Shown here: in pieces, positions 1,100 through 47,487 of the stretch
Layout of the letters: each line of letters starts with the position of its first letter
Position numbering within the stretch: position 1 is the first letter of the stretch
Assembly (NCBI GenBank): GCA_012840355.1
Contig: DULN01000002.1
Span: 114,529-178,528, forward strand
DNA: 64,000 bases
Direction of reading: 5' to 3'
DNA from: Clostridiales bacterium
GTDB taxonomy: Bacteria > Bacillota > Clostridia > Oscillospirales > CAG-272
Made by a program: the position numbers and the translations under genes
Notes under the pieces: generated by a model
The model's input: the letters and a program-made list of their open reading frames with translations, nothing else
The model's database searches: none
Told to the model about the DNA's origin: nothing

Positions 1100-1627
1100 G
1101 TGCATATGTACATCTATCAAATATCGCTGAGATATGATATAACGCGAGCGCAGCTCTTAATGAGGACAATACCGCCCGAGATTAGGGTGCAGTCTATAAG
1201 AAACGGCGTTGAGATAAATTCTCACCCGCTCAAGATAAAAATCGACAACTCAGACTTTTTTAAGTCCATTGGCATACGGCCGGTATGGTCGGTCCTGCAA
1301 GACTCTGCCGTAAAAGGCAACAGGGCTGTGCTTGACTATATGGCAAAACAAGCCCATAAGAAAAACGCGCTGCTCGGCCCGAATGCCAAAACTGTCGCCG
1401 AGATAGCGAACACAAAGCCCGGCCTGATATGGAGCAAAATCGATTTTATCCCCAAAGAAGCCCCGCACATCAGCTGGGAAGACGGCTATGTCGATATAAA
1501 CTTCAAAAAAGACCAGAGAGTTGTCGACATAATACCCGGAAGGATCGAGTTTAGGTACATACCTTACCGGGTTGAGATTTACGCCGAAAAGTGGATAAAG
1601 GAATATCCGCCAGAGCAAGCCTCCTGA
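1100..1627 (+). CDS. conserved flagellar-locus protein of unknown function (YviE-like position between flgL and fliW)
   Basis: 175-aa ORF with no recognisable catalytic motif. It occupies the slot held by yviE in the B. subtilis flgL-yviE-fliW-csrA-hag order. The start is uncertain (GTG 1100, ATG 1106 or ATG 1160) and there is no strong SD. Confidence 0.55.
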   Translation: MHMYIYQISLRYDITRAQLLMRTIPPEIRVQSIRNGVEINSHPLKIKIDNSDFFKSIGIRPVWSVLQDSAVKGNRAVLDYMAKQAHKKNALLGPNAKTVAEIANTKPGLIWSKIDFIPKEAPHISWEDGYVDINFKKDQRVVDIIPGRIEFRYIPYRVEIYAEKWIKEYPPEQAS

Positions 1628-1648
1628 TGCGCGGCGGAGGGGATTTAT

Positions 1649-2083
1649 ATGATAATTGAGACAATGGATTTCGGCTTCGTGGAAATCCGCGAAGAAGACA
1701 TAATAAATTTCCCGCTTGGCGTCTACGCGTTTAGAGAGCATAAAAAATTCGTCGTGCTGCAAAATCCTGACAGCGCGTGGATGCTTCACCTTCAGTCGAT
1801 TGACGGGCCAAAACCGAGGTTCATACTGCTTGACCCGTACATGTTCGTCAGCGACTACAGCCCCATTTTGCCTTCCGAGGCCGACGAGATTTTCGGCACG
1901 CGCGACCCTAGCAAGCTGAGCATCTTTGTAATCGCTTTCATCCCCGGCAACATCCGCGATATGACCGTCAACTTTAAAAGCCCTATCATAATCGATTTTG
2001 ACAGGAAAATCGGCGCCCAGCTGATCCTCGAAAATCCCGGCTACGAGGTGCGGACAAGACTATTCGGCTCGGAGGATGAATGA
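1649..2083 (+). CDS. fliW: flagellar assembly factor FliW (CsrA antagonist)
   Basis: 144 aa, MIIETMDFGFVEIREEDIINFPLGVYAFREHKKFVVL... is a typical FliW N-terminus. There is a GGAGGGG SD. The stop overlaps the csrA reading frame. Confidence 0.9.
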   Translation: MIIETMDFGFVEIREEDIINFPLGVYAFREHKKFVVLQNPDSAWMLHLQSIDGPKPRFILLDPYMFVSDYSPILPSEADEIFGTRDPSKLSIFVIAFIPGNIRDMTVNFKSPIIIDFDRKIGAQLILENPGYEVRTRLFGSEDE

Positions 2084-2085
2084 AA

Positions 2086-2328
2086 ATGCTCGTTATAACG
2101 CGAAAATCCTCCGAAAGCATCCTTATAGGGAACGACATCCGCGTGACAGTACTCGAGATTAGTGAAGGAAAGGTTAAAATCGGGATTGAGGCGCCAAAGC
2201 ATGTCAACATCGTTAGGACTGAAGTGCTTGAGACAATAAACGCCAACATCGACGCGGTTTTAGCCGAAAGCCCGCGAGACCTGAACTTGCTAAAAAGCAG
2301 AATTATAAAGCGGAAAGAAAAAAACTAA
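2086..2328 (+). CDS. csrA: carbon storage/translational regulator CsrA
   Basis: MLVITRKSSESILIGNDIRVTVLEISEGKVKIGIEAPKHVNIVRTEV is the canonical CsrA core. ATG 2086 lies 9 nt after GGAGGA. The ORF-track start at 2080 is too close to the SD. Confidence 0.9.
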   Translation: MLVITRKSSESILIGNDIRVTVLEISEGKVKIGIEAPKHVNIVRTEVLETINANIDAVLAESPRDLNLLKSRIIKRKEKN

Positions 2329-2366
2329 AATGTCAGAAAATTCTGCATCATTTTTCTTTTTCCGCT

Positions 2367-2393
2367 TTATTTTTGTTTCGAGCATTCGATATA
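2367..2393 (+). promoter_or_regulatory. possible sigma28 (FliA/SigD)-type promoter for flagellin
   Basis: The -10-like TCGATATA (2386-2393) is identical to the element upstream of fliD at 10772-10779. The -35 region TTATTTTT (2367-2374) matches TAAAGTTT only partly. Confidence 0.35.
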
Positions 2394-2409
2394 TTTAGTG
2401 AAACAAAAA

Positions 2410-2449
2410 GGGGAATGGAATCCCCGTAAATTTCAGGGAGGAAGAAAAA
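2410..2449 (+). promoter_or_regulatory. flagellin 5' UTR with two CsrA-type GGA sites (hairpin-loop GGA plus SD-overlapping GGA)
   Basis: GGGGA(2410-2414)/TCCCC(2421-2425) form a stem presenting the loop AUGGAA. A second GGA lies inside the SD CAGGGAGGAAG (2434-2444), just upstream of ATG 2450. Confidence 0.6.
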
Positions 2450-3586
2450 ATGAGGATTAACCACAACATATCGGCGATGAATACTTATCGCCAGTACAAC
2501 ATCAACTCGACTTCTATAGCCAAGTCGATGGAGAAGCTGTCGAGCGGCTATAGGATCAACCGCGCGGCAGACGACGCTGCTGGCCTTTCGATTTCCGAGA
2601 AGATGCGCAGCCAGATCCGTGGCCTCAGGCAGGCTATCCGCAACGCCCAGGACGGCATCTCGTTCATCCAGACCGCTGAAGGCGCGCTGACCGAAGTATC
2701 TGATATGCTCACAAGGCTGAAAGAGCTTGCGGTGCAGGTTCAGAACGGCACATACAGCGAAGAGGACAAAGCCAACATCGGCGCTGAAATGAAGGCTCTC
2801 GGCAAGGCAATTAGCGATATTTACGTGAACACCAAGTTCAACGGCATTCAGGTATTTGGCAAGCAGGAAGTTGAGACTACAACTATTGAAGATGTAGTTA
2901 AAAATATGTTTGTTTACGACGGTGGTAATTATACATATTTAAGATATACTGAAGAAAATGGTTGGCAAGGTGGCACGTATAATTCTACTGCGCAGAAGAT
3001 CGAGTGGGAGGGCGTAAATAACCAAATTAAGTACCTTCCCGAAAATATGGAAGCTGACACAATATATAAGCTTGATGTGGATACAATAAAAGAAGTAACT
3101 GTTAATGAAACGGATGGATCAGAAACATTTGGTAATGATGTGACTTTCGATGATTTGACTTTAACTGCTTTGAAGACGTCTACTGCAGATGATAATGCAT
3201 CTATTATAAAATACGGTGAAGACGGAAAGCAGTTTGTCGAAATTAAAACTGCAACTACGAATGCTCTTAATAATCTAACAAAGAAAGCATCGATAGCGGT
3301 CAATAATCCCACACTCGTCACCGTCGACGACGTTGAGGCTGCGATTTCTGAGGTCAACACCACGCGCGCTGCTTATGGCGCTCTCCAGAACCAGCTTGAG
3401 CATGCGTCGAACAACATGGCGACGACGAGGGAGAACCTGCAGGCCGCAGAGTCCCGCATCCGCGACGTCGACATGGCCGAAGAGATGATGGAGTACACCA
3501 AGAACAACATCCTCTTGCAGGCTGCTCAGGCGATGCTCGCTCAGGCGAACGCCCAGCCGCAGGGCATCCTCCAGCTGCTCCAGTAA
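2450..3586 (+). CDS. fliC: flagellin
   Basis: 378 aa. The N-terminus is conserved (MRINHNISAMNTYRQYN...RINRAADDAAGLSISEKMRSQIRGL) and so is the C-terminus (AAYGALQNQLEH...MMEYTKNNILLQAAQAMLAQANAQPQGILQLLQ). The central part is variable and AT-rich. Confidence 0.95.
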   Translation: MRINHNISAMNTYRQYNINSTSIAKSMEKLSSGYRINRAADDAAGLSISEKMRSQIRGLRQAIRNAQDGISFIQTAEGALTEVSDMLTRLKELAVQVQNGTYSEEDKANIGAEMKALGKAISDIYVNTKFNGIQVFGKQEVETTTIEDVVKNMFVYDGGNYTYLRYTEENGWQGGTYNSTAQKIEWEGVNNQIKYLPENMEADTIYKLDVDTIKEVTVNETDGSETFGNDVTFDDLTLTALKTSTADDNASIIKYGEDGKQFVEIKTATTNALNNLTKKASIAVNNPTLVTVDDVEAAISEVNTTRAAYGALQNQLEHASNNMATTRENLQAAESRIRDVDMAEEMMEYTKNNILLQAAQAMLAQANAQPQGILQLLQ

Positions 3587-17543: not shown

Positions 17544-18509
17544 ATGAGGACAGAGCTTTATGAACGCGCAAAAAAATACCCGCCCGAAGGCGGACTGCTC
17601 TGCACGCCGCAAAACAGGCTTGCGCTATCGTCCCGCTCCGCACTTGAGCGCGCCTGCATTGAAGGCACCATTCTCGAGGCGCAGGCTGTCCGCTGCGTAT
17701 CCGACTTGAGTCTTGAAGTCGAGCTGTGCGACGGTATAAAAGGCTTTATACCGCGCGAGGAAGTGCTCTACGATCCGAATCCCAACGCCGGCCCGCCGAG
17801 GGACATCGCGATTTTAACACGGGTGGGCAAGCCCGTCTGTTTTAAAGTGCTTGGCTTCACTCCGGACGGCAACGCGCTGCTCTCAAGGCGCGAGGCCCAG
17901 CGGGAATGCTACGAGGCATACCTTTACGGGCTTGAGCCGGGCGACGTTATAGAAGCAAAAGTTACACATCTTGAGCATTTCGGCGCATTTTGCGACATTG
18001 GCTGCGGATATATTGCGCTGATGACCATAGACGCCATTTCGGTTTCGCGCATATCGCACCCGCGCGATAGGCTGTGGTGCGGGATGAACATCCTCGCCTG
18101 CGTGCGCTCGATTGACAGGGAGACCGGGCGGATAAGCATCTCGCAAAGGGAGCTACTCGGCACTTGGCTCGAGAACGCGGCAAAGTTCCAGCCCGGTCAC
18201 ACCGTGGCGGGCATCATACGTGGCGTGGAAAGCTACGGCGTGTTTATAGAGCTTACCCCGAATCTCGCGGGGCTTGCTGAGTACACGCCCGACGTCGAAC
18301 CGGGACAAAGCGCCGCAGTATACATAAAGAGCATTAACCCCGCAAGAATGAAAATAAAGCTTGTTATCGTCGACGTCTATAACGCCCCGCCAGGCCCGCC
18401 GAAAAAGCCGCAATATGTCGAAGGCATCGCGCCGGGAATGCATATAAGCTATTGGCGCTACTCGCCGCCTGAGTGCGAAAAGGTTATCGAAACAAGGTTT
18501 GACCCATAA
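17544..18509 (+). CDS. S1 RNA-binding domain protein
   Basis: 321 aa with repeated S1/OB motifs (GDVIEAKVTHLEHFGAFCDIG..., GHTVAGIIRGVESYGVFIELTPNLAGLAEY). Confidence 0.8.
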   Translation: MRTELYERAKKYPPEGGLLCTPQNRLALSSRSALERACIEGTILEAQAVRCVSDLSLEVELCDGIKGFIPREEVLYDPNPNAGPPRDIAILTRVGKPVCFKVLGFTPDGNALLSRREAQRECYEAYLYGLEPGDVIEAKVTHLEHFGAFCDIGCGYIALMTIDAISVSRISHPRDRLWCGMNILACVRSIDRETGRISISQRELLGTWLENAAKFQPGHTVAGIIRGVESYGVFIELTPNLAGLAEYTPDVEPGQSAAVYIKSINPARMKIKLVIVDVYNAPPGPPKKPQYVEGIAPGMHISYWRYSPPECEKVIETRFDP

Positions 18510-18644
18510 GTAGTTGCTGCGGCGAATAAAAAAGAGGGCGATGGGCAATTCCCCATGCCAGCCAATGGCATTATAACCGCTTTCGCTGGAACATATCGGC
18601 TGCATGCGATGCGGTAATTTTGCATTTGAATTTTAACGTAGTAC

Positions 18645-18673
18645 TTGACAAAAGTGAATTGCCGTGGTATAAT
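18645..18673 (+). promoter_or_regulatory. consensus sigmaA promoter with extended -10
   Basis: TTGACA (18645-18650), a 17-nt spacer, then TGgTATAAT (18665-18673). Confidence 0.8.
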
Positions 18674-18689
18674 CCCAAAAAAATATTTT

Positions 18690-19009
18690 GACAAAGGCGA
18701 CGACGAAGCTAAGTACGCTTCGGGCGCGGTCACAGAGAGAGGCGCTAACGCCGAGTGCGTTACGCTGAGAGCGCCTTACCGCGTAGGGCGGAAACTCACT
18801 TCCGAGCCGGCACGGTGAAAGGGAGGCGGATATGCCTGCCCGAGTAATCGGCACGGGTTCTCCCGTTACAGAGATAGGATATGCGGGCATAGCGCCTAAG
18901 TATCCGAAGAGGTGGCCTGCTTCGTGCGGGCAATGTCGGTGGTACCGCGGAGACTATACTGCTCCGTCCGACCGTATATGTATGCGGTCGGGCGGGGCTT
19001 TTTGTTTTG
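18690..19009 (+). promoter_or_regulatory. T-box riboswitch leader, specifier most likely CUC (Leu)
   Basis: Stem I base GACGAAG pairs with CUUCCGAG. Other hallmarks: AGUA (18712-18715), AGAGA (18734-18738), specifier loop GAA-A-CUC-A (18791-18798), F-box-like CCGUUA (18863-18868) and T-box core GGUGGUACCGCG (18938-18949). A 14-bp terminator stem (18961-18998) is followed by TTTTTGTTTTG. Confidence 0.85.
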
Positions 19010-19038
19010 CCAATATCATAACGAAAGGACGGAAAACG

Positions 19039-20718
19039 ATGGAGTTTATCGAAAGGACACTTGGTCAGCAGCTAGATTATATTGCAAATAGGTTTCCGGA
19101 TGTGGAAGCTGTCGTTTTTGAGGATACTGTCGGAGGGGAAGAGATCATATACCGGCGCACATACGCCGAGTTTGCCGCCGACTGCGAGCGAGCGGCGCGC
19201 GCTTTATATGCGCTTGGGATTCGGCCCGGTGACCATATCGCGATTTGGTCGACAAACTGCCCCCAGTGGCTGCTCACGCTTTTCGGCGCCGCGAAAATCG
19301 GCGCGGTGACCGTTACCGTCAACACCGCCTACAAAATCCACGAGGCAGAGTACCTTTTCCGCCAGTCGGATTCAAAGATGATCGTCTGCTGCGACGGCTA
19401 CAAAGACGTATCTTACATAGACATAATCTATCAGCTTTGCCCTGAGATTAAAACGCAGGACAAAAGCTCGCTCGATTGCCGCGCGCTGCCGATGCTGAGG
19501 ACCGTCGTGACGTTAACGAAAGATACCTACCCGGGCATGTATAACTGGAACGAGATTCTTGCGCTCGCCGATACGGTCGACGAGGCGGAGTATCAGGCGA
19601 CTGTTGCAAATTTAAACTGCCACGATGTCGTAAATATTCAGTATACCTCGGGAACGACCGGCTTTCCAAAAGGCGTAATGCTCACGCACTACAATATATT
19701 AAATAACGGCAATTCAATCGGCGATTGCCTAAAGCTCACCGAAAAAGATAGGCTTTGCATTTCGGTGCCGCTTTTCCACTGTTTTGGGCTGGTTTTGGCG
19801 ACGCTTGCCTGCGTGACGCACGGCTCAACAATGGTGCTTGTGCCGTATTTCAGCCCGCTGAAAGTGTTAAAGACGCTAGAGAGCGAGCGTTGCACGGTCT
19901 ACCACGGCGTTCCAACGATGTTTATCGCGCTGCTCGAGCATCCGGAGTTTAAAAATTTCAAGTTCTGCCTGCGCACCGGTATTATGGCAGGCTCGCCATG
20001 CCCGATAAAGACGATGAGAGAGGTAATAGACGTGATGGGCATGCGCGAAGTGACGATAACTTACGGTCAGACCGAAGCTTCGCCTGGCTGCACGATGACC
20101 GTTACCGACGACCCGATAGAAAAGCGCGTGAATACCGTCGGCAGGCCGCTGCCCGGCGTCGAGGTAAAAATAGTCGACACCTCAACCGGCGAGGAGATTA
20201 CCGAGCCCGGCAAGATTGGGGAAATCTGCGCGCGCGGGTACAATGTGATGAGAGGGTACTACAAAATGCCCGAGGCGACTGCGCAGGCGATTGACAAAGA
20301 CGGTTGGCTGCATACCGGCGACCTCGGCTGCCGCGACGAGGACGGGTACTATAAAATCACCGGCCGCATAAAGGATATGATAATCCGCGGGGGCGAAAAT
20401 ATCTATCCGAAAGAAATTGAGGACTTTATACACACCCACCCAAAAGTAAAAGACGTGCAGGTTATAGGCGTACCGTCAAAAATTTACGGCGAGGAAATTA
20501 TGGCTTGCATAATACCCAAGGAGGGTGCTATAATTGACCCAGAGGAGATAAAAGAGTACGTCCGCTCGCACATGGCGAAGCACAAAACGCCTTCGTATGT
20601 CAAAATAGTCGACAGCTTCCCGATGAACGCCTCAGGCAAGGTGCAAAAATATAAGCTCCGCGAAGCTGCGATTGAAGAGCTCGGCCTTGGCGAAGCGGCT
20701 GCAATCGAAACTGCGTGA
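19039..20718 (+). CDS. AMP-dependent acyl-CoA synthetase/ligase (ANL superfamily, medium-chain/ACSF2-YngI-like)
   Basis: 559 aa from MEFIERTLGQQLDY. Motifs present: YTSGTTGFPKGV, TYGQTE and GWLHTGDLG...GRIKDMIIRGGENIYPKEIE. The ORF-track start at 18832 lies inside the T-box leader and was rejected. Confidence 0.85.
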   Translation: MEFIERTLGQQLDYIANRFPDVEAVVFEDTVGGEEIIYRRTYAEFAADCERAARALYALGIRPGDHIAIWSTNCPQWLLTLFGAAKIGAVTVTVNTAYKIHEAEYLFRQSDSKMIVCCDGYKDVSYIDIIYQLCPEIKTQDKSSLDCRALPMLRTVVTLTKDTYPGMYNWNEILALADTVDEAEYQATVANLNCHDVVNIQYTSGTTGFPKGVMLTHYNILNNGNSIGDCLKLTEKDRLCISVPLFHCFGLVLATLACVTHGSTMVLVPYFSPLKVLKTLESERCTVYHGVPTMFIALLEHPEFKNFKFCLRTGIMAGSPCPIKTMREVIDVMGMREVTITYGQTEASPGCTMTVTDDPIEKRVNTVGRPLPGVEVKIVDTSTGEEITEPGKIGEICARGYNVMRGYYKMPEATAQAIDKDGWLHTGDLGCRDEDGYYKITGRIKDMIIRGGENIYPKEIEDFIHTHPKVKDVQVIGVPSKIYGEEIMACIIPKEGAIIDPEEIKEYVRSHMAKHKTPSYVKIVDSFPMNASGKVQKYKLREAAIEELGLGEAAAIETA

Positions 20719-20740
20719 GCGGGAGGAATCTGCTTTGAAA

Positions 20741-21553
20741 ATGAAACTTTCCTTTTCGACGCTCGGCTGCCCCGACTGGGACCTTAGCGAGGTGGTAGCC
20801 GTCGCGGCCGACCTTGGGTATAACGGCATCGAGATCCGCGGTGTGGGCGAGGAAATCTACGCGCCGCGCGTCCGCGAGCTTTTGCCCGAGCATGCGGGCG
20901 AGCTTCTCGAAAAGCTCCGCGCCGCAAAGCTCACTATACCTATTCTCACCTCCGGGGCATATCTTGCTAATAACCCCGATATAGCTGCAGCCGAAGCCGA
21001 GGTCAAAGACTATGTAAACCTTGCCGCAAGGCTCGGCGTACCATACGTCCGCGTGCTCGGGGAGGGGACTCCCGAGCCGGGCGGCAAGGTCGACAAAGAT
21101 GACGTTATAGCAAGGTTTAAATCGCTTTGCGAGTATGCCGAAAATTTCGGGGTAACACTTCTTGTCGAAACTAACGGTTGGCTTGCAGGTTCAAATCACA
21201 TGCTTGATTTTATAAAGCGCGTCTGCATGCCTAATGCCGGCGTGCTGTGGGACGTCCACCATACAGTGCGGTTTTTCGGCGAGCGCCCCGCGGCGACCGT
21301 CGAGCGGCTTGGCAGATACATAAAGCATGTGCATGTCAAAGACTCGGTGCAAAAGCCGGACGGTAAAATAATGTATGTGCTCACAGGCTACGGCGACATA
21401 CCTATTGAAGATGCGTATAAAGCGCTATCGGCTATAGGCTATGAGGGTTTCTATTCATACGAGTGGGTAAAGCGCTGGGCAAGGGAACTCGACGAGCCTG
21501 GCGTGGCATTCTACAAATATATCAGCTACATGCGCGGAATTGAAGGCGACTAA
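20741..21553 (+). CDS. xylose-isomerase-like TIM-barrel protein (sugar phosphate isomerase/epimerase family)
   Basis: MKLSFSTLGCPDWDL...GYNGIEIRG...LLVETNG...HVHVKD...YSYEW is the pattern of the AP-endonuclease-2/IolE-like fold. It starts 22 nt after the ligase stop; TTG 20735 is an alternative start. Confidence 0.75.
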   Translation: MKLSFSTLGCPDWDLSEVVAVAADLGYNGIEIRGVGEEIYAPRVRELLPEHAGELLEKLRAAKLTIPILTSGAYLANNPDIAAAEAEVKDYVNLAARLGVPYVRVLGEGTPEPGGKVDKDDVIARFKSLCEYAENFGVTLLVETNGWLAGSNHMLDFIKRVCMPNAGVLWDVHHTVRFFGERPAATVERLGRYIKHVHVKDSVQKPDGKIMYVLTGYGDIPIEDAYKALSAIGYEGFYSYEWVKRWARELDEPGVAFYKYISYMRGIEGD

Positions 21554-21589
21554 AGAGCCGCTAAAGCTGCGTATTAGGTAAAATACTGG

Positions 21590-21632
21590 CAAAATAAAAA
21601 ACAGCACCCTGCATCGGGTGCGTTTTTTATTT
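21590..21632. terminator. bidirectional terminator between the TIM-barrel gene and rpsT
   Basis: GCACCC (21604-21609) pairs with GGGTGC (21616-21621). AAAATAAAAAA lies upstream and GTTTTTTATTT downstream. Confidence 0.8.
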
Positions 21633-21673
21633 CCGACACAAAATTTCGGACACTGCCGTGCAAGCGTGCGCCC

Positions 21674-21946
21674 TTACTGGGCGGCTCGCATCGCGTTAAG
21701 CGCGCGGGTGAAACGGCTCTTTTTGCGTGCCGCGTTGTTTTTAGCGATTATGCCCTTAGTGGCGGCGCGGTCGATTTTCGCAATCGCAACTTTATACGCG
21801 GCTATTGCGGCATCATAGTTGTTGGCCTGCACCGCGGCGAGGAACTTCTTTATAGCCGTTTTCATGGCGGACTTCGTCATCCTGTTGCGAAGCGTCCTCT
21901 TTGCCGTCAGCAAAACGCGCTTTTTCGCCGATCTCGATTTCGGCAA
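21674..21946 (-). CDS. rpsT: 30S ribosomal protein S20
   Basis: TTG start gives MPKSRSAKKRVLLTAKRTLRNR, the canonical S20 N-terminus. An AGGAGG SD lies 8 nt upstream. The ORF-track GTG at 21955 abuts the SD. Confidence 0.9.
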   Translation of the reverse strand: MPKSRSAKKRVLLTAKRTLRNRMTKSAMKTAIKKFLAAVQANNYDAAIAAYKVAIAKIDRAATKGIIAKNNAARKKSRFTRALNAMRAAQ

Positions 21947-21991
21947 TGCCTGCACCTCCTGTCGCTCGATAAAAATTTAGTCACAATGTTT

Positions 21992-35011: not shown

Positions 35012-35151
35012 ATTCACACTATATTTTCGGGGGTCGGTGAAATTCCGCACCGGCGGTGAAAGTCCGCGAACGCCCGATGCATTAAAAAGCGTCGGGTGCC
35101 GAGCAGGTGGAACTCCTGCACCGACAGTGAAAGTCTGGATGGAAGAAAATA
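35012..35151 (+). promoter_or_regulatory. FMN riboswitch (RFN element) aptamer
   Basis: UUCGGGGGUCGGUGAAAUUCCGCACCGGCGGUGAAAGUCCGCGA...CACCGACAGUGAAAGUCUGGAUGGAAGAAAAU matches the RFN consensus nearly position by position. P1 is UAUUUUC paired with GAAAAUA. Confidence 0.92.
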
Positions 35152-35161
35152 TACCGTGTGA

Positions 35162-35221: not shown

Positions 35222-35806
35222 ATGACGAAAACCCGTCTTAGAGTGTATCGCATTGCCGCAATGGGCATTTTTGCGGCGCTTTCGATTGTGCTCGTTTACT
35301 TCATCCATTTTCCGATCTTCCCTGCGGTGCCGTTCCTCGAGTATGACCCCGCGGACGTTCCGATAATAATCTGCGCCTATCTTTTCGGCCCCCTGCACGG
35401 GCTTGTACTTACCGTGGTTGTCAGCGTTGTTCAAGGGCTCACTGTCAGCGCCCAGAGCGGCTGGATAGGCATACTTATGCACATACTCGCGACCGGCGCG
35501 CTTGTGCTCGCTGGCTCCGGCTTGCGCCTTTTGCTGCACACCCGCAAACAAAAAACCGGCGCTGGACTAAACGCCGGAGTTATTGACATTATTTCAGCTT
35601 TTTCGGGTACTGTGGCGATGACGGTCACCATGGCGCTTTGGAACATGCTGTTCACTCCCATTTTCATGGGCGTGACGCTCGACGTCGTGATGCCGCTGAT
35701 GCCGTTTATCGTGGCTTTCAATCTCATAAAAGCCGCGCTCAACTCGGCAGTTGCGCTGGTAATCTATAAGCTTTTGCCGAAGCGGTTGCTTGAGCGGCTG
35801 TCTTAA
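35222..35806 (+). CDS. ribU: riboflavin ECF-transporter substrate-binding (S) component RibU
   Basis: 194-aa polytopic membrane protein directly behind an FMN riboswitch. N-terminus RIAAMGIFAALSIVLVYF. Confidence 0.8.
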   Translation: MTKTRLRVYRIAAMGIFAALSIVLVYFIHFPIFPAVPFLEYDPADVPIIICAYLFGPLHGLVLTVVVSVVQGLTVSAQSGWIGILMHILATGALVLAGSGLRLLLHTRKQKTGAGLNAGVIDIISAFSGTVAMTVTMALWNMLFTPIFMGVTLDVVMPLMPFIVAFNLIKAALNSAVALVIYKLLPKRLLERLS

Positions 35807-44758: not shown

Positions 44759-46471
44759 ATGAAGCAGAAATATGTGAATTATGAAGTAAGGCCGATTACG
44801 GACATACGCGAGCTTTTACGCTCTAGCGTAGAGCTTTACGGCAATCTGACGGCGTTCCTCGAAAAGCGCGACGGAAAATACCAGCCCGTGACGTATAACG
44901 AGTATTATCGCGATGTGCGCGGGCTTGGCGCGGCTCTTTACGACCCCGCTCGCTCCGAACGCCGCATCGCGGTTATAGGTGAAAACTGCTACATGTGGGC
45001 GGTTTCGTATATGGCGGTCGTTTGCGGGCTCGGCGTCGTCGTGCCTATCGACCGCGAGTCGACAGCCGAAGATATAAAAAACATTGTCAGCATCGCGGAA
45101 GTCGACACAATCCTGCATGCCGATTCGGTGAAAGGCAAGCTTGCGGGTATAGAAGGCGTGCAGAAAATAGCTTTCAGCGACCTTCGCAGGCTTATCGAAA
45201 AAGGCGCTGAAATGCTCGAAGCCGGCTCGACGGCATACGACGGTCTGCCGATCGACCCGTATAAGATGACGGCGCTAATTTTCACCTCGGGCACAACCGG
45301 TATCGCTAAGGGTGTCATGCTCTCCCACCACAACATCGTTTTCGACATCATGGAAATGTGCAAGATGATAAATGTCCAGCCCGAGGACATCTTTTTGTCG
45401 GTTCTGCCGCTGCACCATACCTACGAGTGCACCTGCGGTTTTTTGGCGGTGCTCTATCGCGGCGCGACTATTGCATACTGCGAGAAGCTGAGCACGATTC
45501 AGCGCAACCTGCAGGAAACAGGCGCAACGGTGATGCTCGTCGTCCCGCTGCTTCTTGAAACACTCTACAAAAAGATATGGCAAAACGCCGAAAAAAGCGG
45601 GCGGGCAGCAATGCTCCGCCGCGCGATAAAGATTAATAACGCGCTGAAAAAGGTCGGGATTGACCTTTCAAAGAAGCTCTTTGCCGAAATTCACAACGCT
45701 TTCGGTGGTCGGCTGAGGCTGCTCATCTCGGGCGGCGCCGCGATTGACCCCAAAGTCTTGGCTGGGCTGCGCGATTTGGGTTTCCATGCGCTTCAGGGCT
45801 ACGGGCTCACCGAATGCGCGCCGCTCGCGGCGGTCAACCGCGACACTTACTTCAAAGATGATGCAGCCGGGCTTCCGCCTCCCAACGCTTGGCTTGCAAT
45901 CCATGATCCCGATGAAAACGGCATAGGCGAGATAAAATACCGCGGCGATAACATCATGCTCGGGTATTATAAAATGCCCGAGGCGACGGCGGAGGTTATC
46001 CGCGACGGCTGGCTTTACACCGGCGACCTTGGCTATATAGACGAGGAAGGATTCCTCCATATAACCGGGCGAAAGAAGAACGTCATCGTTACCTCGAACG
46101 GCAAGAATATTTATCCCGAGGAGCTTGAGTACCATCTCGGCCGCGACCCAAGAGTGCTCGACTCGATGGTCGTCGGCGACACCGCGCCGGATGGCGAGAC
46201 TGTTATTAAGGCGATAATATACCCAGACTACGAGCGGGTCAACGCCGAAATTGCGGCAAAGGGCATTCCGACCGACAATATAGACTCGCCCGATTACCGC
46301 GACGCGGTAAGAAACCTTTTCGCGGATATGATAAACGACCTTAACCTGAAACTTCCGACCTACAAGCGCATACGCAAGTTTATAATCCGCCGCGAAGATT
46401 TTGAAAAGACCACGACAAAGAAGATAAAACGCCACGCACAGGCGAATCTTGACGAGTCAGGGCAGCTGTGA
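44759..46471 (+). CDS. long-chain-type AMP-dependent acyl-CoA ligase
   Basis: 570 aa. Motifs: IFTSGTTGIAKGVMLSH, GYGLTE and GWLYTGDLGYIDEEGFLHITGRKKNVIVTSNGKNIYPEELE. The ATG immediately follows the anti-sigma stop. Confidence 0.85.
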   Translation: MKQKYVNYEVRPITDIRELLRSSVELYGNLTAFLEKRDGKYQPVTYNEYYRDVRGLGAALYDPARSERRIAVIGENCYMWAVSYMAVVCGLGVVVPIDRESTAEDIKNIVSIAEVDTILHADSVKGKLAGIEGVQKIAFSDLRRLIEKGAEMLEAGSTAYDGLPIDPYKMTALIFTSGTTGIAKGVMLSHHNIVFDIMEMCKMINVQPEDIFLSVLPLHHTYECTCGFLAVLYRGATIAYCEKLSTIQRNLQETGATVMLVVPLLLETLYKKIWQNAEKSGRAAMLRRAIKINNALKKVGIDLSKKLFAEIHNAFGGRLRLLISGGAAIDPKVLAGLRDLGFHALQGYGLTECAPLAAVNRDTYFKDDAAGLPPPNAWLAIHDPDENGIGEIKYRGDNIMLGYYKMPEATAEVIRDGWLYTGDLGYIDEEGFLHITGRKKNVIVTSNGKNIYPEELEYHLGRDPRVLDSMVVGDTAPDGETVIKAIIYPDYERVNAEIAAKGIPTDNIDSPDYRDAVRNLFADMINDLNLKLPTYKRIRKFIIRREDFEKTTTKKIKRHAQANLDESGQL

Positions 46472-47487
46472 AAACGGGATTTTATAAGCCGGGCTATTGG
46501 CTTTTTCGTGTAAAAACAACGCGGGCGCGGCTGGCAAAGGTTTTTTTAGCCTTATGGCTTGCCGCGTCCGCGGCCGCGATATTTGGCGGTTGCAGCGAGC
46601 CGGCAAGGTTTGACGCAGGCAAAAACTTGTCAAAAACAACGGCTGAGGCAAACCACACGTTTGAGCAGGCGCCCGCCGTTGTCTACAAAGCGCCGGAAGG
46701 CGAGCCCGCATGGTACGAGGACAACAGGATAGTCGCGCATGCGCTCGGCTGCGTCGACGGGCGTTGCGAGACAAACTCATACGAGGCGCTCGAGCTGACT
46801 TACTCGCGAGGGCAGCGGGTGTTCGAGGTGGACCTTGTGCTCACCTCGGACGGTTATCTCGTTGCGCGCCATGACTTTGCCGACGACTCGTACTACACGC
46901 TCGAGCAAAAGAAGCCCGAAGACCCTGTAATGAGCCTTGAGGCGTTCCTATCGGCGCCGATTAAGGGGCTTTATACGCCGATAACGATAAAAGATATATC
47001 CGAGTTTATGGCATCGCACGAGGACACATTTTTTGTTACCGACACAAAATTCACCGATACCGAAACCGTGCGAAAGCAATTCGAGCAGATTTGCGAGGCA
47101 ATGGAATATGACAGCCGGCTCGATAGGATTATAGTGCAAATTTATAATTATGAAATGTACGATACCGTAAGCTCGGTGTACCCTTTTAAAAACTACATTT
47201 TTACGGTCTATCAGATAAACCCAAACGATCTTGATTATAACGAACTAGGAAAGTTTTGCGCCGAGCGTGGGATTGCCGTGGTGACAATGCCGGAAGCAAG
47301 GGCAAACGCCGAAGTGACGTCACTTTTGCACTCATACGGCTTGCGGGTGTATGTACATACCATAAATCGCATCACCACGATGGGCACAATGCTGATGTAT
47401 GGCGTATGCGACGGGTTTTACAGCGACTATGTGACGCAGCCTGAGCTTGCGCGATACCTAGAAAAAGCGAAAATAACTATAGACTAA
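46468..47487 (+). CDS. GDPD/PI-PLC-like phosphodiesterase lipoprotein
   Basis: The GTG start overlaps the ligase stop by 4 nt. A signal peptide with lipobox IFGG-C is present. The GDPD-like core reads VAHALG...TNSYEAL...FEVDLVLTSDGYLVARHD. Confidence 0.65.
   Translation: MKTGFYKPGYWLFRVKTTRARLAKVFLALWLAASAAAIFGGCSEPARFDAGKNLSKTTAEANHTFEQAPAVVYKAPEGEPAWYEDNRIVAHALGCVDGRCETNSYEALELTYSRGQRVFEVDLVLTSDGYLVARHDFADDSYYTLEQKKPEDPVMSLEAFLSAPIKGLYTPITIKDISEFMASHEDTFFVTDTKFTDTETVRKQFEQICEAMEYDSRLDRIIVQIYNYEMYDTVSSVYPFKNYIFTVYQINPNDLDYNELGKFCAERGIAVVTMPEARANAEVTSLLHSYGLRVYVHTINRITTMGTMLMYGVCDGFYSDYVTQPELARYLEKAKITID

Follow-up and report, generated by a model that had tools for sequence, protein, structure and literature searches.

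T-box leader and operon in the window

We analyzed a 64,000-nucleotide stretch of contig DULN01000002.1 from a Clostridiales bacterium (hereafter the window, whose numbering is used for all coordinates except those prefixed by a locus identifier such as L001), in which an RNA leader precedes a two-gene operon coding for an acyl-CoA ligase of the ANL superfamily and a xylose-isomerase-like TIM barrel (Table 1). An earlier note, made from the sequence, had read the leader as a leucine-type T-box controlling both genes. Domain searches agreed with its two gene assignments, with AMP-binding (PF00501, 330.7 bits) and AMP-binding_C (PF13193, 69.3 bits) in the product of the first gene and AP_endonuc_2 in that of the second.

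The T-box covariance model RF00230 aligned to the leader over its full length (model positions 1 to 219 of 219) with an E value of 4.2e-18 on the leader alone and 5.4e-16 across the whole 64 kb, where it is the sole T-box. Its score of 81.2 bits lies below the curated gathering cut-off of 93 bits, and for this reason a default Rfam scan at the gathering threshold did not report the T-box and returned a flavin mononucleotide (FMN) riboswitch alone; the T-box was recovered by a permissive scan. Two insertions set the leader apart from the RF00230 alignment, one of 27 nucleotides in distal Stem I and one of 31 nucleotides before Stem III. The hallmarks of Stem I (a GACGA...CGAGC base, AGUA, AGAGA, and GAA-A-CUC-A) are all present, and every motif coordinate in the earlier note proved correct in the sequence. 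With respect to the RF00230 match, the full-length alignment, its E value and the placement of the specifier on CUC thus agreed with a T-box, while the score stayed under the cut-off. Taken by itself, the 12-nucleotide T-box core (GGUGGUACCGCG) is not significant in 64 kb, as 29 of 100 shuffles gave at least one match at one mismatch or fewer; the significance of the T-box therefore rests on the full covariance model, and the core was not used as evidence. The UGGU bulge in the core predicts a discriminator A73. These results confirm that the leader is a genuine T-box and an ordinary member of its family.

The elements expected of a transcriptional switch surround the T-box. The promoter proposed in the earlier note matches the hexamer consensus at 12 of 12 positions, carries the TG extension before the -10 element and is the best of seven promoter-like sites within 18400-21900. 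The terminator had likewise been located correctly, U-run included, although its stem comprises 17 bp rather than the 14 bp claimed. Its predicted stability is -33.2 kcal/mol (z score, -7.0) versus -15.1 kcal/mol for the antiterminator segment alone. Such a difference is what one would expect of a switch whose antiterminator depends on tRNA for stability. The 3′ arm of the antiterminator (CUCCGUCCGAC) is common to the 5′ arm of the terminator, making the two structures mutually exclusive.

In the public annotation, the ligase gene codes for 628 residues and begins at an ATG at position 18832, inside the T-box leader (18832-20718). A ribosome-binding site (AAGGA) lies upstream of 19039, and the homologues align from residues 1 to 3 of the 559-residue form, so that the ligase most likely starts at 19039 and the longer call appears to be an overcall reading through the riboswitch. 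Public annotations are generic, i.e., “fatty-acyl-CoA synthase” or “AMP-binding protein” for the ligase and “sugar phosphate isomerase/epimerase” for the TIM barrel.

Conservation of the leucine specifier

Homologous leaders were compared in 80 loci from reference genomes, nearly all of them metagenome-assembled genomes of Clostridia, with relatives at 55 to 68% identity, and in an additional set of three closer relatives of the window ligase (79, 70, and 67% identity). Across the 80 loci, T-box cores are found repeatedly on the strand of the ligase, and their distances from it fall into three characteristic offsets. A strict regular expression (GAA-N-codon-R...GAG) missed most of the diverged leaders, and specifiers were read instead from a Stem I covariance model that was built from an alignment of 32 leaders and then run on the window and the 80 loci. 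The model detected 43 elements; the window and 33 of the 80 loci have one upstream of the ligase module.

Both the RF00230 alignment and our Stem I model put the specifier of the window leader at CUC (18795-18797). Upstream of the module, the specifier is CUC in 30 loci and the window and CUG in two loci (L019 and L029); in L031, a register shift of one base leaves it ambiguous (a 5-bp helix would give CUC-U). The three closer relatives all carry a T-box (CUC-A), the ligase, and the TIM barrel in this order. Altogether, 35 of the 36 homologous leaders (33 loci and 3 closer relatives) have CUC or CUG as their specifier, the remaining one being ambiguous. In other T-boxes, the same model read AUC five times, GUA twice, and UGG once, indicating that it does not force CUC; a weak Stem I match (17 bits) was found elsewhere in L045.

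The structure around the specifier is also conserved. Stem I positions form standard pairs in 96.3% of cells across 43 leaders, compared to 74% after shuffling and 35 to 45% with the partner slid, and double (compensatory) changes occur at 12 of 14 pairs, a covariation reached by 0 of 500 shuffles; as the alignment was fitted to the model, these figures are biased toward structure. In the lower helix next to the specifier, 98.8% of cells are paired; each of its four pairs shows double changes, and the 32-leader alignment has compensatory changes in 7 to 15 sequences per pair. Together with the RF00230 match, the leaders of the 33 loci and three closer relatives support the claim of the earlier note that the leader is a leucine-specific T-box, predicted to control the ligase and TIM-barrel operon.

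A permissive Rfam scan of seven loci without a T-box revealed no T-box or alternative leader, the sole match being an unrelated thiamine pyrophosphate (TPP) riboswitch. A TPP riboswitch lies in the flank of one related locus (L049:5688-5785, plus strand), and an unrelated T-box with a UGG (Trp) specifier is found in the flank of another (L005:9301-9418, minus strand). In L041, Stem I (1386-1503) and the core (1891) are separated by about 390 nucleotides of very GC-rich, repetitive sequence, which may be an insertion or a misassembly.

The TIM barrel and the ligase as one module

Judging from their arrangement, the TIM barrel and the ligase are evidently one conserved module. The two are fused in frame in 55 of the 80 loci, with the TIM barrel at the N terminus of the ligase in a protein of about 840 residues, and are encoded by separate neighboring genes, as in the window, in 9. 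The 16 loci without an adjacent TIM barrel include five Desulfuromonadales-type loci and some truncated contigs. In one such fusion (L003:1869-4400), AP_endonuc_2 spans residues 22 to 244 and AMP-binding spans residues 303 to 692. Four loci (L001, L013, L033, and L057) have the ligase alone under a leucine T-box, which supports the view that the ligase provides the core leucine-related function of the module.

The AlphaFold2 model of the TIM barrel has a pLDDT confidence of 93, and Foldseek aligned it at a probability of 1.00 to UlaE, AsbF, Art22, IolI, SCO6571, and ketose 3-epimerases. UlaE, the ketose 3-epimerases, AsbF, IolI, and Art22 share its fold with TM scores of 0.75 to 0.83, at identities of no more than 20%. 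To our knowledge, none of these five occurs as a fusion to an ANL ligase or under amino acid control. Dehydratases and hydratases (AsbF, an IolE protein, and AtHYD) are found among the solved structural relatives of the TIM barrel. The protein reached the cut-off of none of the named equivalogs considered (fructoselysine 3-epimerase, IolO, hydroxypyruvate isomerase, psicose epimerase, and IolE), its best score being 47.2 bits against 305. Among 65 TIM domains, fused and split, the candidate metal-site residues are kept in 65 (E143), 63 (H198), 56 (D171), and 56 (E241) sequences, and E31, E181, D201, and W242 are also invariant or nearly so. The spacing of E143, D171, H198, and E241 presumably matches the Glu-Asp-His-Glu metal site of epimerases. 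Such near-invariance speaks for an active metal enzyme and against a scaffold. The earlier note had left the TIM-barrel partner unexplained, and so it remains; what can be added is that it is fused to the ligase in most loci and apparently catalytically intact, suggesting that simple acid activation is not the whole story.

In the ligase, residues 201 to 215 (QYTSGTTGFPKGVML), G533, and K534 are invariant across 18 homologues, and we take them to be the ANL adenylation motifs. Among NCBIfam families, PRK12583 (NF009233, “fatty acid CoA ligase family”) comes closest, at 744.6 bits with a cut-off of 832. MbcS (NF047394), a ligase of short branched acids discussed below, is not among the 25 best NCBIfam matches. 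Sequence and fold searches of the PDB with the ligase, the TIM barrel, and the two proteins introduced below (Amidohydro_2 and LeuA-like) returned relatives that are generic or uncharacterized.

Ligase homologues of about 56% identity also occur in Desulfuromonadales and other deltaproteobacteria (L061, L066, L070, L072, and L076), with no TIM barrel and no T-box, so the ligase family is not confined to Clostridia, and its setting outside them differs. An M24 (PepQ-like) peptidase comes after the ligase in L061 and L072.

Operon context and isoleucine and valine T-boxes

Three architectures were distinguished among the related loci. In the first, the T-box is followed by a LeuA-like gene, the TIM-ligase fusion, and an Amidohydro_2 gene; in the second, by the TIM-ligase fusion alone; and in the third, by the ligase gene, to which TIM and Amidohydro_2 genes may or may not be added. 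The LeuA-like gene is present in 20 of the 80 loci and comes first in the T-box operon in 10. Its product contains HMGL-like and LeuA_dimer domains and scores 335 against a LeuA cut-off of 532, and its nearest solved relatives, at about 120 bits, are genuine isopropylmalate synthases. Amidohydro_2 is found in 15 of the 80 loci and in L085, and its solved relatives are uncharacterized proteins and non-oxidative decarboxylases.

In six loci (L037, L038, L040, L047, L048, and L073), the operon runs on in the same orientation into genes for the aminotransferase IlvE and/or subunits of a 2-oxoacid:ferredoxin oxidoreductase (OFOR), namely alpha (POR_N), beta (TPP_enzyme_C), and gamma (POR). In the operons of L038, L040, L073, and L017, the OFOR alpha and beta genes regularly come after the gene of a small P-loop protein that resembles CbiA and ParA by a weak Pfam match.

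A second type of T-box ligase was found next to the leucine unit. In L014, L017, L042, L052, and L064, the leucine unit is followed by an isoleucine (AUC) T-box driving a gene for a fusion of HTH_3, Cupin_2, and ANL domains. The best NCBIfam match of this protein is MbcS, at 449 bits with a cut-off of 850, and its ligase is about 26% identical to the leucine-type one. Single-linkage clustering had made the isoleucine T-box ligase appear as a paralogue of the TIM-ligase fusion, an assignment that was ruled out by its HTH, Cupin_2, and ANL domains and by this low identity. A valine (GUA) T-box precedes a further HTH-cupin protein in L042 and L064, which is 38 to 46% identical to the isoleucine-type one. 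The HTH-cupin part also exists as a separate gene before a ligase gene (L078:817-1428, followed by 1428-3101) and alone (L073:8994-9545). Fused to an acyl-CoA ligase, the HTH-cupin module may act as a feedback sensor.

Candidate role in leucine supply

We consider it probable that the leucine T-box operon is a leucine-supply module of anaerobic Clostridia, in which isovalerate would be activated, reductively carboxylated, and converted to leucine. When leucine is scarce, uncharged tRNA-Leu would accumulate; base pairing of its anticodon with the Stem I specifier (CUC) and of its free 3′ end with the UGGU bulge would stabilize the weak antiterminator against the strong terminator. RNA polymerase would then read through into the bicistronic operon. 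The ligase would convert a short branched acid with the leucine skeleton, most probably isovalerate, to its CoA thioester at the expense of ATP. With flux presumably in the direction of synthesis, OFOR would reductively carboxylate isovaleryl-CoA to 2-oxoisocaproate, IlvE would transaminate this to leucine, and the TIM barrel would be a metal-dependent enzyme acting in the same route.

The step from an isovalerate ligase to reductive carboxylation had been suggested in the earlier note, and the OFOR and IlvE genes in the same operons, together with the parallel isoleucine and valine T-boxes, substantially strengthen it, short of proof. Three amino acid-specific T-boxes, each with its own ANL ligase and sharing OFOR and IlvE, are most economically read as a reversed branched-chain amino acid fermentation. 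Purified MbcS activates 2-methylbutyrate and isobutyrate, and isovalerate poorly (PMC10026030). The two preferred acids are those corresponding to isoleucine and valine, and the poor use of isovalerate by MbcS would explain a separate ligase family for leucine. Carboxylation of isovalerate to leucine was shown by labeling in rumen bacteria (Allison 1962, 1966, as cited in PMC7356843). As for the window, its organism occurs in metagenomes from biogas fermenters, anaerobic digesters, and manure, and many digester metatranscriptome assemblies contain the locus, with single contigs spanning the leader and both genes. Biogas, digester, and manure habitats are rich in volatile fatty acids.

Several observations weigh against a role in isovalerate carboxylation. 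No leu, ilv (including ilvE), or OFOR genes were found in the survey of the window, nor any tRNA genes. The T-box is frequent rather than universal, about half of the loci having none. The ligase reaches the cut-off of no NCBIfam model, and the solved structures nearest to it, those of feruloyl-, malonyl-, and oxalate-CoA ligases, are generic relatives. The metatranscriptome contigs start upstream of the promoter and merge with the convergent rpsT gene, and neither the start site nor a readthrough ratio can be read from them. The candidate assignment to isovalerate is drawn solely from leucine T-box control and the OFOR, IlvE, and LeuA-like neighbors. Moreover, activation of isovalerate needs no TIM barrel, Amidohydro_2, or LeuA-like enzyme, yet all three are tightly linked to the ligase.

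This last point would be met if the four linked enzymes were all catalytic in an undescribed leucine route that bypasses the isopropylmalate pathway via a dicarboxylyl-CoA intermediate, which we nevertheless regard as unlikely. The LeuA-like enzyme would condense acetyl-CoA with a keto acid (e.g., acetoacetate, giving 3-hydroxy-3-methylglutarate) to a free hydroxy-dicarboxylate, and the ligase would re-activate this to a CoA thioester. The fused TIM barrel would then dehydrate it (to 3-methylglutaconyl-CoA), Amidohydro_2 would decarboxylate the product (to 3-methylcrotonyl-CoA), and reduction would yield isovaleryl-CoA for OFOR and IlvE to turn into leucine. This scheme would give a role to the LeuA-like gene, to Amidohydro_2, and to the TIM-ligase fusion, whose two parts would catalyze consecutive steps. 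It is in keeping with a LeuA-like protein that has an HMGL-like domain and scores far below the LeuA equivalog cut-offs, with the dehydratases and hydratases among the solved relatives of the TIM barrel, and with the non-oxidative decarboxylases among those of Amidohydro_2. The ligase has dicarboxylate activators (malonyl- and oxalate-CoA ligases) among its nearest solved relatives, but this likeness is generic. Although its chemistry is coherent, the scheme is entirely inferential, and none of these operons contains an enoyl-CoA reductase. Most loci, the window included, carry the ligase and TIM barrel alone, and the four with the ligase alone under a leucine T-box do not fit it either. The isoleucine and valine T-box ligases, being MbcS-like simple acid activators, speak by analogy for simple salvage. 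If the route were real, the TIM-barrel-ligase fusion would be a new type of bifunctional enzyme.

It is quite improbable, in our estimation, that isovaleryl-CoA serves instead as a primer for iso-branched membrane fatty acids, thereby sparing scarce leucine. MbcS sets the precedent by serving lipid synthesis in Staphylococcus aureus (PMC10026030; PMC11167679), and induction by the T-box under leucine limitation would suit sparing equally well. Cotranscription with IlvE, OFOR, and the LeuA-like synthase nonetheless points to amino acid synthesis, no fab or lipid genes were seen in the loci with annotated neighbors, and the TIM barrel would again be left unexplained. We give very little credence to the reading that the substrate is a fatty, aromatic, or sugar acid with no relation to leucine and the leucine T-box an incidental or general starvation cue: the generic public annotations allow it, and finding a TIM barrel, Amidohydro_2, and an ANL ligase together is reminiscent of aromatic-acid pathways like that of AsbF, but the leucine specifier is kept in all but one of the homologous leaders across families of Clostridia, the operons repeatedly hold LeuA-like, IlvE, and OFOR genes, and the neighboring isoleucine and valine T-boxes show amino acid-specific wiring.

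Relation to known systems

The leader belongs to the same RNA class as the known leucine T-box (1996 work, as cited in PMC2494555), with which it shares the CUC specifier, a predicted antitermination by uncharged tRNA-Leu, and a probable link to leucine supply. The known leucine T-box controls ilv and leu biosynthetic genes, leuS, or a permease, whereas the targets here are an ANL ligase and a xylose-isomerase-like TIM barrel, and the present leader differs further in its two insertions and its score below the Rfam gathering cut-off. MbcS of S. aureus is likewise an ATP-dependent ANL ligase and salvages exogenous short branched acids as CoA thioesters (PMC10026030). The window ligase belongs to another ANL family, with PRK12583 as its best match and about 26% identity to the MbcS-like isoleucine-type ligases; apart from its poor use of isovalerate, MbcS differs in feeding lipid synthesis, and no T-box or TIM-barrel partner is reported for it in PMC10026030. 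Rumen isovalerate carboxylation matches the proposed role in that exogenous isovalerate is carboxylated and aminated to leucine in Clostridia-type anaerobes. That work consists of physiological labeling, however, and the published pathway assigns no step to a TIM barrel. No activating ligase gene or regulatory RNA assigned to it was found in the literature searched.

The earlier note had called the two genes a non-canonical T-box target. In keeping with this, neither comparative papers on T-box regulons nor full-text searches, with Vitreschak 2008 outside their coverage, turned up any report of this target class, of an ANL ligase and TIM barrel under T-box control, or of a set of leucine, isoleucine, and valine T-boxes on acyl-CoA ligases. 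The mechanism of regulation is that of a standard T-box and is not new, and the content of the regulon appears to be undescribed.

T-box specifiers are in effect built-in functional annotations, and here a leucine specifier marks a widespread, essentially unannotated gene pair as belonging to leucine supply in Clostridia of the gut, the rumen, and digesters, among them Oscillospiraceae, Acutalibacteraceae, and Christensenellales. The leucine and isoleucine/valine T-box ligases near OFOR and IlvE are gene candidates for the acid-activation step of branched-chain acid carboxylation, whose physiology has been known since the 1960s while its genetics stayed unassigned, and which becomes directly testable. 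A leucine-supply role would bear on the requirement of fiber-degrading rumen bacteria for branched-chain volatile fatty acids, on how members of gut and digester communities cross-feed, and on genome-based predictions of auxotrophy. The TIM-barrel partner is an enzymological puzzle that could reveal a new reaction.

Table 1. Coordinates of the T-box operon in the window and of associated genes in related loci
Feature	Position	Strand	Remark
Sigma-70-type promoter, TTGACA-17-TATAAT with TG extension	18645-18673	+	12/12 hexamer matches
T-box leader (Stem I, Stem II region, Stem III, antiterminator)	18691-18974	+	RF00230, 81.2 bits
Stem I base, 5′ side, GACGAAG	18702-18708	+	
AGUA	18712-18715	+	
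AGAGA	18734-18738	+	
Specifier-loop 3′ side, GAA-A-CUC-A	18791-18798	+	
Specifier CUC (Leu)	18795-18797	+	followed by purine A18798 and lower Stem I helix CUUC (18799-18802)
CUUCCGAG	18799-18806	+	
CCGUUA	18863-18868	+	
T-box core GGUGGUACCGCG	18938-18949	+	UGGU bulge pairing with tRNA 3′ end
Intrinsic terminator	18961-19008	+	17-bp stem (18961-18998) and U-run
ANL-superfamily acyl-CoA ligase, candidate isovalerate-CoA ligase	19039-20718	+	559 aa
Xylose-isomerase-like TIM barrel	20741-21553	+	270 aa; PF01261, 106 bits; alternative TTG start at 20735
Hairpin with T-runs on both sides	21604-21621	.	same hairpin found on both strands
HTH_3-Cupin_2-ANL fusion after Ile T-box	L014:6772-9372, L017:6570-9165, L042:6513-9079, L052:6223-8791, L064:5740-8396		
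HTH-cupin gene after Val T-box	L042:9135-9653, L064:8533-9653		loci end before any ligase domain
CbiA/ParA-like P-loop gene	L038:6709-7389, L040:6683-7399, L073:5664-6374, L017:9240-9653		

Other features of the window

The hairpin downstream of the TIM-barrel gene ends both the operon on the plus strand and the convergent rpsT gene on the minus strand (about 21674-21955), beyond which lie rpoB and rpoC. A second ANL enzyme, with an AMP-binding domain only and about 29% identical to the T-box ligase, is encoded at 44759-46471 (plus strand); its gene overlaps the start of a GDPD-family phosphodiesterase gene (46468-47487) and appears unrelated to the T-box operon. The FMN riboswitch (RF00050, 104 bits; 35019-35154, plus strand) lies directly upstream of an open reading frame for the S component of an energy-coupling factor (ECF) transporter (35222-35806), and the two together look like an ordinary riboflavin-uptake unit.

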